Origin: Candidatus Doudnabacteria bacterium Gr01-1014_77
GTDB taxonomy: Bacteria; Patescibacteriota; Doudnabacteria; UBA920; VMFF01
Length of the DNA stretch: 26,672 nt
Direction of reading: 5' to 3'
Assembly (NCBI GenBank): GCA_007375915.1
Contig: VMFF01000002.1
Span: 1-26,672, forward strand
Shown here: in pieces, positions 2,462 to 4,459 of the stretch
Layout: every line of letters starts with the position of its first letter
Position numbering within the stretch: the stretch's first letter is position 1
Position numbers and translations under genes: made by a program
Notes under the pieces: generated by a model
The model's input: only the letters and a program-made list of their open reading frames with translations
Database searches by the model: none
What the model was told of the DNA's origin: nothing

Positions 2462-3115
2462 TTAAACTTTCTTTATTATTTCTGCAATATATCCAGGTTC
2501 CGAAACCGCGTGTTTGTAGCTGTTTAGTATTAAATCAACTAACTGATCTTTATGTACAAAAGAAACATCAGCAGAAGTATTTTCAATTCCACCCCTCCTG
2601 TTATTAGGCATAACTAAAAGTGCTTCTACCCAAACTTTTTTTCTACAATATGCATTAATGAAATGTTTTAACTTCATTGCACCGCGATGTGATTGGTTTA
2701 AGAAAGCGTGCAATTGTCCGGCATTTGGATGGTAGTGACTCTTAACTTCAATTGCAAAAATTCCTGTTGGACCAATTACTGCAAAATCAATATCACCACC
2801 GTGTCTTAAAGAAAGATCTTGGAAAACATAAAAGTCATGAGGTAATCTGAGAAGCTCTCTTTTGATACTTTCTTCTCCCCAAATTCCTCTTGAAAATCTA
2901 TGAGATCTTTTTTCAAAGAGTTTTGCCAAAGAGTATCCAAGTGGAATTAAAAGAACAATTAAAAGCATCCAATCAGAAAGAGAAGAATAGCTATCAATGT
3001 CTCGTTGGCTTAAATAGCTTAGAAACAAAAACAATCCCAAAGTTATTACAAACAGAAGAATGAAAAGAGTTTCTTTTCTTTGCAGGAAACTGCTTTTTTT
3101 AATGTATATAGCCAT
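2462..3115 (-). CDS. Membrane-anchored NERD (nuclease-related domain) protein
   Basis: Two N-terminal hydrophobic helices, then GIWGEE...GDIDFAVIGPTGIFAIEVKSH, a NERD/PD-(D/E)xK-like signature. Confidence 0.85.
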   Translation of the reverse strand: MAIYIKKSSFLQRKETLFILLFVITLGLFLFLSYLSQRDIDSYSSLSDWMLLIVLLIPLGYSLAKLFEKRSHRFSRGIWGEESIKRELLRLPHDFYVFQDLSLRHGGDIDFAVIGPTGIFAIEVKSHYHPNAGQLHAFLNQSHRGAMKLKHFINAYCRKKVWVEALLVMPNNRRGGIENTSADVSFVHKDQLVDLILNSYKHAVSEPGYIAEIIKKV

Positions 3116-3155
3116 TACTGTATTATTCTAGCACTTTTAAGCCCCTTTTGGAGCC

Positions 3156-3185
3156 TTGACAGGAGTGCTATTTTATTGTTAATAT
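3156..3185 (+). promoter_or_regulatory. Putative sigma70 promoter for the GC-rich 3.2-3.56 kb element
   Basis: TTGACA-N18-TAATAT with an extended -10 TGn. Confidence 0.6.
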
Positions 3186-3187
3186 GC

Positions 3188-3307
3188 TTTTTCTACAGTA
3201 TATTCCTGCAGCCGCTCGCGAGAGCGAAGCGGAAGTAACAACGAGCCCAGAGGGCGAGTGGCTGTAGGAAAAACCTTCGTTCTGGCACTAAGGTCCAGAC
3301 ACGGAGG
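3188..3307 (+). promoter_or_regulatory. Structured RNA leader or ncRNA candidate
   Basis: A 17-bp helix (3203-3219/3254-3270) with two G-U pairs that form only on the + strand, and a 12-bp bulged hairpin at 3274-3307. Confidence 0.6.
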
Positions 3308-3334
3308 ATCACGTTCCAAAGGAGGATCACCCAG

Positions 3335-3484
3335 ATGACCACGACGAGCACCGGCCGACCGCGGACGCGCAAGCCCCAGACGAATCCGAATTCCGTTGAC
3401 GCGACGACCCAGGGCGACGGCAGCGCGCAGCAGGGCACCGACAAGCCTGCCACGCAGTCCGACGGCAGCGGCACCGCGCAGTAG
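3335..3484 (+). CDS. GC-rich small ORF, 49 aa, predicted disordered (MTTTSTGRPRTRKPQTNPNSVDATTQGDGSAQQGTDKPATQSDGSGTAQ)
   Basis: Below the track cut-off. AAGGAGG-atcacccag-ATG start, third codon positions almost all G/C, stop TAG followed by hairpins. Confidence 0.7.
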   Translation: MTTTSTGRPRTRKPQTNPNSVDATTQGDGSAQQGTDKPATQSDGSGTAQ

Positions 3485-3511
3485 CAACAGCGGCGCCGGG
3501 TCACCAGGGAA

Positions 3512-3601
3512 GCTCGCCCCGAGGCGCTCGGGGCGAGCAACCCCAGGTTTTACCTGGGAACAAGCAAGAAAGCAGCAACCAACCGGTTTGTCTGCTTTTT
3601 T
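3512..3601. terminator. Three tandem hairpins, the last followed by a U-run
   Basis: GCTCGCCCCGAG-gcg-CTCGGGGCGAGC (12 bp), CCCAGGT-ttt-ACCTGGG (7 bp), and AAAGCAG...CTGCTTTTTT. Confidence 0.7.
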
Positions 3602-3620
3602 GACGCCTTGCTTTAGGCTC

Positions 3621-3649
3621 TTGACAAAGTACCAATATTTAGTTAATAT
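3621..3649 (+). promoter_or_regulatory. Sigma70 promoter upstream of rpmF-nusB
   Basis: TTGACA-N17-TAATAT. Confidence 0.75.
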
Positions 3650-3671
3650 TCCGAGTTAAAACAAAATATTA

Positions 3672-3768
3672 GTTATGGCTCCTGATTTCGTACATACGGA
3701 TTGGGGGCAACCCAAAAGGCTTGTGTAAGAGCATTTATTTATGAGGCTCTATGGCACGAGTCTTTTTG
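3672..3768 (+). ncRNA. Two-hairpin leader or sRNA candidate upstream of rpmF
   Basis: Long G-U-rich hairpin at 3672-3711, and a 13-bp helix (3714-3726/3754-3766) ending in a U-tract. Confidence 0.45.
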
Positions 3769-3838
3769 TTTTGCATATTTAATATTTTGTTAACAAGTTT
3801 TTAATGTTTTTTGCGTATTAATAGTAAATCATAAAACT

Positions 3839-4015
3839 ATGGGTGTTCCAAAAAAGCACAAGACCAGATCAGGAAGAGACCAGAGAAGATCTCACCATGC
3901 TTTAAAAGCAAAGATATATGCAGCTTGCAAAAACTGTGGCGCTCCAACAAGAACGCATGAAATTTGTCAGAGCTGTGGTTTTTACAAGGGACGTCAGGTC
4001 CGTAAAGTTAAATAA
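3839..4015 (+). CDS. rpmF: 50S ribosomal protein bL32, zinc-binding C+ form, 58 aa
   Basis: Absent from the track. Translates as MGVPKKHKTRSGRDQRRSHHALKAKIYAACKNCGAPTRTHEICQSCGFYKGRQVRKVK, with two CxxC pairs and GFYKG. Confidence 0.97.
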   Translation: MGVPKKHKTRSGRDQRRSHHALKAKIYAACKNCGAPTRTHEICQSCGFYKGRQVRKVK

Positions 4016-4024
4016 CCGAGAAAC

Positions 4025-4459
4025 ATGGCAAACCGACATCTCTCACGAACAGTAACAATGCAAACCCTGTATGAGTGGGATTTTAACGGTAGAAAAGAAC
4101 AACTCAAAGATTTAGCAAAGCATAATATAGAACAGCTGGCTCCAGGAATGGAAGATACTGCATTCATCTATGATTTGTTAGGCGGGGTTGAATCTCATCT
4201 TGAAGATATAGACAAAACAATTATTGAGACTGCTCCAGAATGGCCATTGGATCAAATTACAGTAGTTGATAGAAATATCTTACGCATCGGAATATTTGAA
4301 CTTCTCTATGAAAAGCAGGTGCCTCCAAAAGTCGCTATAAACGAAGCAGTAGAATTAGGAAAGACATTTGGTGGAGAGTCATCTGGCAAGTTCGTAAACG
4401 GTGTGTTGGGAACTCTTTATAAAAAACTATTTCCTGAAGAGACTTTAAAGGTAGAGTAA
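4025..4459 (+). CDS. nusB: Transcription antitermination factor NusB
   Basis: RHLSR...[35 protein letters not shown] and KFVNGVLG are NusB motifs. Confidence 0.97.

Follow-up and report, generated by a model that had tools for sequence, protein, structure and literature searches.

A genus-restricted leader RNA with comparative support for two alternative folds, upstream of a predicted small gene in Doudnabacteria

Upstream of a small open reading frame in the 26,672-nt stretch of Doudnabacteria DNA analyzed here (the window), we find a leader RNA that is real, previously undescribed, and restricted to one genus, and that has good comparative support for bistability. It is very probable that the region is the conserved leader, with two folds, of a real small gene. 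The element is probably the 5′ leader of a small, fast-evolving orphan protein gene that sits in a self-contained G+C-rich cassette of a CPR/Patescibacteria genome, and the leader is probably an RNA switch, new and confined to its genus. The initial annotation had suspected a bistable structured RNA at this place, and the comparison of homologues upholds this suspicion: bases covary with two different partners, and the energies of the two folds (states A and B) are near-equal across homologues.

A G+C-rich cassette and its small gene

The window is contig C68 of a 600-kb genome assembly (82 contigs, 86.7% complete, 37.6% G+C) whose relatives carry the labels Patescibacteria or Doudnabacteria. 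A sharp G+C island at 3200-3600 peaks at ~69%, against 37.6% genome-wide, and lies between a divergent NERD-domain gene on one side and the rpmF-nusB genes on the other. It is among 47 stretches of at least 150 nt with at least 58% G+C in this genome (G000). Genes for rRNA or tRNA will account for some of these 47 stretches, but many resemble further GC-rich cassettes. The island is organized as one transcription unit, in which a consensus promoter is followed by a leader of ~140 nt, an SD, a 49-aa ORF, and three 3′ hairpins, yielding a highly structured transcript of ~410 nt with a small ORF (Table 1). In a consensus scan, the promoter matched at 10 of 12 positions and had an extended -10, and its TTGAC and TAATATG are invariant across every homologue that extends that far 5′. 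A second promoter-like site at 3176-3204 was rejected, as its conservation is absent in relatives.

Table 1. Features of the transcription unit, in window coordinates
Feature	Position	Strand	Description
Promoter	3156..3185	+	-35 TTGACA 3156-3161; 18-nt spacer with TG at -15/-14; -10 TAATAT 3180-3185
U-run UUUUUC	3188..3193	+	Predicted transcription start, 3-8 nt past -10; outer U-A/U-G part of P1
P1 5′ strand (state B)	3190..3199	+	Pairs with 3261-3270
State A 17-bp stem, 5′ strand	3203..3219	+	3213-3219 doubles as 5′ strand of the state B GNRA hairpin
State B arm P2/P2a	3207..3237	+	P2 3207-3209/3235-3237; hairpin 3212-3232, GAGA cap 3220-3223, bulged A3227
State B arm P3	3238..3259	+	3238-3239/3258-3259; P3a GCCC/GGGC hairpin 3245-3248/3252-3255
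Shared 3′ strand	3254..3272	+	Partner 3203-3219 (A) or, via 3261-3272, 3188-3199 (B); then A-run
Hairpin 2	3274..3307	+	12-14 bp, bulged, present in both states
SD and start codon	3322..3337	+	GGAGGA 3322-3327, ATG 3335-3337, 7 nt apart; both invariant in all homologues
Small ORF	3335..3484	+	49 aa (49-71 aa in relatives), hydrophilic; open in every homologue
3′ UTR	3499..3601	+	Box GGUCACCAGGGAAG 3499-3512, H1 3512-3538, H2 3542-3558, terminator 3566-3601 with T-run

By blastn, the whole unit has homologues of 72-82% identity in each of the four remaining species genomes of the genus, and the same search found the unit absent from other genera. The covariance model R1, run over 146 genomes of the order together with our own, returned a single copy in each genome of the genus (n = 5) and none in the 141 others; a 13-bit match of this model on contig C58 was dismissed as noise. 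A leader pattern run over 185,579 species genomes gave 19 matches, 4 of them real and all in the same genus. A pattern scan of metagenomes gave 54 matches, and nhmmer, applied to these loci together with L010 and L011, kept four, of which only L043 and L062 derive from the metagenome scan, L010 and L011 having come from a protein look-up. In total, 7 distinct leader sequences were obtained, all from one genus and from ~3 lineages; L010 is truncated at the 5′ end of the leader, which the six other homologues reach. Phage and plasmid collections contained no blastn match to the leader, and two pattern scans of viral contigs gave 0 matches. Rfam 15 at the gathering threshold placed no family over the leader, the only matches in the window being five tRNAs, and a search of 3050-3900 at E ≤ 10 returned seven chance-level matches, the best scoring 22 bits where the threshold is 55, with the + strand over 3188-3307 free of any match. 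The initial annotation could not assign the structure to an RNA family, and this stands, with no described family matched at either setting; nor was its central claim refuted by the seven homologous sequences, in which covariation is present.

The 49-aa ORF is probably real, judging from how its sequence evolves. Insertions and deletions within the CDS are all multiples of 3 (3, 6, 9, 12, 15 or 48 nt; nucleotide alignment), whereas those in the leader and 3′ UTR are mostly of 1, 2, 4 or 5 nt. Its GC3 of 0.90-0.96, compared with a GC1 of 0.53-0.61, is specific to the frame of the ORF, and, of all six frames, this annotated one scores highest in synonymous fraction (0.27 versus 0.16-0.20). Thr, Ser, Gly, Gln, and Asp abound in the product, which has a basic N-terminus and no hydrophobic stretch and evolves fast. 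It opens with an invariant MTTTS (3335-3352), in which ACC and ACG codons vary synonymously, and an invariant RTRKP follows a few residues on; together, these form a Thr/Ser run and then an arginine-rich patch. Pfam holds no family for the product, and in two very large protein searches its relatives were confined to the genus. Two ORFs on the minus strand (102 and 115 aa) were rejected, as open frames are common in all frames here and these two carry no signal.

Conservation of the 3′ UTR exceeds that of the middle of the CDS, with H1 100% paired (including 2 compensatory pairs) and the terminator 99% paired. We also observed that this UTR (3499-3601) combines covarying hairpins with invariant single-stranded boxes, GGUCACCAGGGAAG and ACAAGCAA..AAGCAGCAACC. 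It could be the source of a 3′-UTR-derived RNA or act as a stability element. We considered, and rejected, an icaR-like interaction (PMC3868564) in which the start-codon region would pair with the box GGUCACCAGGG of the 3′ UTR: it comprises 8-9 of 11 pairs, lacks covariation, and is broken in two homologues.

The surroundings of the cassette offered several further observations. On the minus strand at 2086-2400, a second GC-rich cassette has a promoter-like TTGATT-17-CAATAT, a hairpin CUGCGA-GGGA-UCGCAG adjoining the SD GGAGGAACC, an ORF (ATG at 2314) that encodes a single-pass membrane protein of 55 aa, and then a GC-rich terminator. In another genus of the same family (g4), the slot upstream of rpmF is occupied by other, non-homologous GC-rich small-ORF cassettes with structured leaders, located at L096:1300-2200 and L097:2300-3000 (both minus strand), with one cassette in G007 and two in G009. 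Each of these has a strong promoter, a structured leader, GGAGGA, an orphan ORF of 35-54 aa, and a terminator, without homology to the cassette in the window. The g4 cassettes and ours are alike in being GC-rich, with a small ORF and a hairpin-rich leader, but the g4 leaders are not homologous to ours and have no evident second fold. A search for a motif shared between our leader, the g4 cassette leaders, and the neighboring cassette at 2305-2372 found none; those leaders are structured.

On the other side, rpmF (L32; 3621-3838) is preceded by a conserved promoter of its own, TTGACA-17-TAATAT, and by a leader of ~190 nt. Within this leader lie a 17-codon ORF (ATG at 3675, stop at 3728) and, at 3743-3772, a hairpin that resembles a terminator and carries a T-run. 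The sequence AUGGCUCC at the start of this ORF is conserved in two other genera, and the L32-NusB operon could have a leader peptide or an attenuator here. Across the genus, NusB (4025-4459) keeps a protein identity of 93-98%, whereas the adjacent cassette (3190-3601) shows only 68-87% at the DNA level with a GC3 above 0.9. Hence, the cassette evolves much faster than core genes while its G+C bias is kept.

Two mutually exclusive folds of the leader

State A of the leader is a single long helix, in which UUCCUGCAGCCGCUCGC (3203-3219) pairs with GCGAGUGGCUGUAGGAA (3254-3270) over 17 contiguous bp. Two of these pairs, G3208-U3265 and G3214-U3259, are G-U and would become C-A on the minus strand; the helix and its strand-specific pairs had already been pointed out in the initial annotation and are present as described. 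The + strand of 3188-3345 folds at -57.9 kcal/mol, compared with -40.8 ± 3.7 kcal/mol for 200 dinucleotide shuffles (z = -4.66, none of the 200 as good), while the minus strand reached a z of only -1.14, with 26 of 200 shuffles as good. This folding excess on the + strand only is consistent with the G-U pairs existing only in the + sense.

State B uses the same 3′ strand differently. The rival pairing of 3188-3199 with 3261-3272 was confirmed at 12 bp, 2 of them G-U, as was the GNRA-capped hairpin formed by 3213-3219, GAGA, and 3224-3231. Together with P3, these helices form the three-way junction that had been proposed earlier; the linker described with it as unpaired, however, turned out to be partly paired, through P2 (3207-3209/3235-3237) and the P3a hairpin (3245-3255). 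Since 3261-3270 and also 3213-3219 are common to both states, A and B are mutually exclusive. Downstream of both lies hairpin 2, confirmed at -18.1 kcal/mol, which folds alike in all seven homologues (-15.7 to -19.8 kcal/mol) and is 98.8% paired; 7 of its changes are one-sided, and one pair is compensatory. The GGAGG at 3303-3307 that this hairpin was thought to sequester is incidental, being GAAGG or GAUGA in relatives; the real SD is the GGAGGA at 3322-3327.

The pattern of substitutions suggests that both rival folds have been preserved by evolution. The stem of state A is paired in 96.6% of alignment cells, a value that drops to 35-53% once the two strands are set out of register by one to three columns, and it carries compensatory changes at 3205-3268, 3216-3257, and 3217-3256. 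State B (P1, P2 with the GAGA hairpin, and P3/P3a) is paired in 98.3% of cells, with five compensatory pairs. P1 contributes 10 pairs, 100% of cells paired, with four one-sided changes and one compensatory pair at 3195-3265 (A-U, G-C, or G-U); P2 is 100% paired with one compensatory pair; P2a is 100% paired with two (3216-3228 and 3217-3226); and P3 has one (G-C or A-U), P3a being uninformative because it is invariant wherever it can be aligned. The outer part of P1 includes a run of U5-U7 that is conserved in the six homologues reaching the 5′ end. Shuffled alignments attained the state A score in 4 of 500 cases and the state B score in 0 of 500, a control that overstates significance for sequences as related as these. 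With effectively three independent lineages in one genus, each covariation represents one or two events, and statistical power is low. The RNA-level selection claimed in the initial annotation is borne out by these compensatory pairs, three in the long stem and five in the alternative fold, together with the covariation in the second hairpin.

The most telling indication that two folds are kept is, on the alignment, the double covariation of a single dinucleotide: 3216-3217 reads UC in one clade and CU in the others, and the change is matched both at 3228/3226, its partners in state B, and at 3257/3256, its partners in state A. Position 3265 adds a case in which the folds diverge. In one clade it changed from U to C, which P1 accommodates as a G-C pair whereas stem A acquires an A-C mismatch, and it tracks its P1 partner 3195 throughout (A-U, G-C, G-U).

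Energetically, the two states lie close together. When only the first domain is considered, the gap between A and B is at most 2.3 kcal/mol in 6 of the 7 homologues, no larger than the 2-3 kcal/mol error of nearest-neighbor energies. In the seventh (G001), the first-domain value is skewed by an alignment column, and the analysis of its U-run favors A by 0.2-4.8 kcal/mol at every start position. In full-length RNAs, A is favored by ~1.6-8.5 kcal/mol in most homologues when all 5′ U are kept, and by more for later starts. A direct-path estimate puts the barrier between A and B at 12-16 kcal/mol. When prefixes of increasing length were folded, the GNRA arm appeared from ~34-46 nt and P3a at 64 nt; B was the best fold only at 74-76 nt, and an A-type fold was best from 78 nt on. 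The balance responded to the very first nucleotides: G(B)-G(A) climbs by ~1 kcal/mol for each 5′ U removed, and in 6 of the 7 homologues it changes sign within the U-run at 3188-3193, with the transcription start predicted 6-8 nt past the -10.

A candidate mechanism and its alternatives

What the leader might control is constrained by what its folds leave alone. The predicted accessibility of the SD and AUG (as unpaired probabilities) is equal in states A and B, and no terminator-like site was found in the leader, so that, in these models, the output would be neither SD masking nor termination. As neither fold touches the SD or a terminator, mRNA fate via the 5′ end would be the most likely output. 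An anti-SD role for a UUCCU tract freed in B was examined and dropped: the best duplexes, of about -8 kcal/mol, occurred in two homologues only, the scan had misplaced the start regions of L062 and L010, and, where one clade changed C to U, the compensating change lies in stem A and not at the SD.

Our tentative proposal, which we hold somewhat short of probable, is that the first 80 nt of the leader act as a conformational switch whose balance is set by the 5′ U count and whose output is the fate of the mRNA, through a paired or free 5′ end. State B would form first, during transcription, when the 5′ end (the U-run and CUACAGU) pairs with 3261-3272 as P1 and closes a three-way junction with the GNRA-capped arm and the GCCC/GGGC arm. 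State A, as the more stable fold, would then dissolve P1 and the GNRA arm and set free ~11 nt of the 5′ end. The number of 5′ U residues may bias the choice between the two, via start-site selection or slippage in the U-run. A paired 5′ end, as in B, would protect the mRNA; in A, either the free 5′ end or the long duplex would leave it open to attack by RNase J or RNase III. Genes for RNase J and RNase Y are present in the genome, as are two for RNase III. That pairing of the 5′ end affects RNase J is known from Bacillus, and we carry this over to CPR by analogy. Distinctly less likely is the bolder form of this proposal, namely that the leader is a new kind of 5′-end-length sensor, in which the U count at the start, through UTP-dependent choice or slippage, selects between junction and stem and so sets mRNA lifetime without involving the SD or a terminator.

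A ligand- or protein-binding riboswitch is a rather unlikely alternative. Here, the junction of state B would be an aptamer for a metabolite or a protein, for example the arginine-rich N-terminus of the peptide itself, and binding would hold B against the more stable A. A three-way junction closed by P1, with a competing helix and covariation in both folds, would suit such a design, and the conserved GNRA-type loop and the invariant, basic RTRKP would fit an autoregulatory peptide-hairpin pair. The unpaired junction bases, however, are few and vary within the genus (over the seven sequences, J1/2 reads AUAUUCC, AUUCUCC, or AAACUUUC), one clade has lost the internal loop of P2, the P3a loop is variable, and in G001 the loop is AAGA. 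An expression platform is missing as well, with no terminator in the leader and an unaffected SD, as is any Rfam match. Nothing in the leader supports a ribozyme or a metabolite-binding pocket. Inspection showed neither a hammerhead-type core nor, in the internal loop of P2, a kink-turn.

We regard as somewhat improbable, too, a programmed folding pathway of the hok/aapA type without any sensing, in which metastable B would delay A and thereby time the translation or processing of the nascent mRNA. That B is best only within a narrow window of transcript lengths, with a barrier of 12-16 kcal/mol, and that most homologues have A as their ground state at full length would both be expected of such a pathway, as would the ~410-nt, highly structured transcript with its small ORF; functional metastable structures are documented in small-ORF mRNAs (PMC6733600, PMC5416894). 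Against it, the SD and any anti-SD lie outside both folds, the hydrophilic product is no membrane toxin, an antisense promoter-like site was not found, and the start-codon region and the 3′ UTR box, although complementary, show no covariation and have lost the match in two homologues.

A plain 5′ structure that protects or insulates a strongly expressed mRNA would be simpler, the second fold then being a side effect of CUACAG and CUGCAG both complementing CUGUAG. We consider this quite unlikely. The same-slot cassettes of related genera do have hairpin-rich leaders without an obvious alternative fold, and an output domain was not found in ours, but B-specific compensation is present (the 3195-3265 G-C pair in the same three genomes that are mismatched A-C in stem A, as well as 3208-3236 and 3216-3228), and so are A-specific compensatory changes. 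As the compensation is specific to each fold, a by-product fold would not be so maintained.

It is very unlikely that the whole ~410-nt transcript is a non-coding or dual-function RNA with an incidental 49-aa ORF: although the leader and 3′ UTR are better conserved than the middle of the ORF, this GC-rich DNA has long open frames in most of its six reading frames, and the protein lacks relatives beyond the genus, indels keep to multiples of three in the CDS and not in the UTRs, the SD and ATG are invariant, the GC3 of 0.90-0.96 is specific to the frame, and this frame has the top synonymous fraction, including synonymous changes in the conserved MTTTST codons.

To our knowledge, regulatory RNAs of CPR/Patescibacteria are almost unknown, and these bacteria are hard to grow. 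The leader is a compact (80-nt) natural RNA with comparative data for two exclusive folds and a balance point at the predicted transcription start. It is therefore a tractable system in which to study conformational switching in vitro, and a way into the expression of the puzzling GC-rich orphan cassettes of CPR. If the proposed 5′-end-length sensing is true, it could be a general CPR means to tune such cassettes; if the switch merely stabilizes the mRNA, it is a minor addition to structured leaders.

Comparison with known systems

The leader shares single traits with several well-known classes. It resembles purine-class riboswitches in its P1-closed three-way junction, where the 3′ strand of P1 can join a competing helix, but differs from them in the absence of an Rfam match, in junction bases that vary among the seven sequences, and in having no terminator or SD-masking platform. 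A leader-peptide transcription attenuator has a short leader ORF with a run of regulatory codons and, after it, overlapping helices (1:2, 2:3, and 3:4) that end in a terminator ahead of a structural gene. In contrast, the Thr/Ser run MTTTST here occupies codons 2-6 of an ORF of 49-71 aa, the alternative helices lie upstream of this ORF, and the terminator at 3566-3601 is followed by the separate, conserved promoter of rpmF. The Bacillus aprE and ermC leaders stabilize mRNA by 5′-terminal stem-loops that are single, constitutive hairpins. State B similarly puts the first transcribed bases in a helix, in a genome that has RNase J and RNase Y, but, unlike those stabilizers, our leader has a conserved competing fold that frees the 5′ end.

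For control through the 5′ end, the nearest precedent, by analogy, would be start-site switching at pyrC and pyrD, to which reiterative initiation appears related. In E. coli and Salmonella, nucleotide-sensitive choice of the start site adds two 5′ residues to these transcripts and thereby decides whether a 5′ hairpin forms, which in pyrC masks the ribosome-binding site (PMC6524683). Where a start site falls within a homopolymer run, initiation becomes reiterative (PMC8812562). Likewise, a few extra 5′ residues would decide the 5′-terminal helix here, each U adding ~1 kcal/mol to P1. Unlike in pyrC, however, the folds of the leader leave the SD untouched, the run consists of U and not C/G, there is no tie to pyrimidine genes, and start-site heterogeneity is only proposed here.

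For conserved metastable folds, the closest analogy seems to be with the type I toxin mRNAs hok (plasmid R1) and aapA1/aapA3 (Helicobacter pylori) (PMC6733600, PMC5416894). As in these, a small ORF is carried on a structured mRNA of ~400 nt, a transient co-transcriptional 5′ structure would be replaced by a stable one, and single bases covary with two partners, so that coupled covariation of alternative folds is found here too. In contrast to hok and aapA, the product is hydrophilic, without a membrane helix, the SD lies outside the alternative folds, and pairing between the 5′ and 3′ ends is unsupported; a consensus scan of the minus strand over 2900-4100 found no promoter-like site for an antisense RNA. 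Because SD masking, a hydrophobic toxin, and an antisense promoter are all missing, the leader is a member of neither group, and it works partly like pyrC/pyrD and partly like the type I toxin mRNAs.
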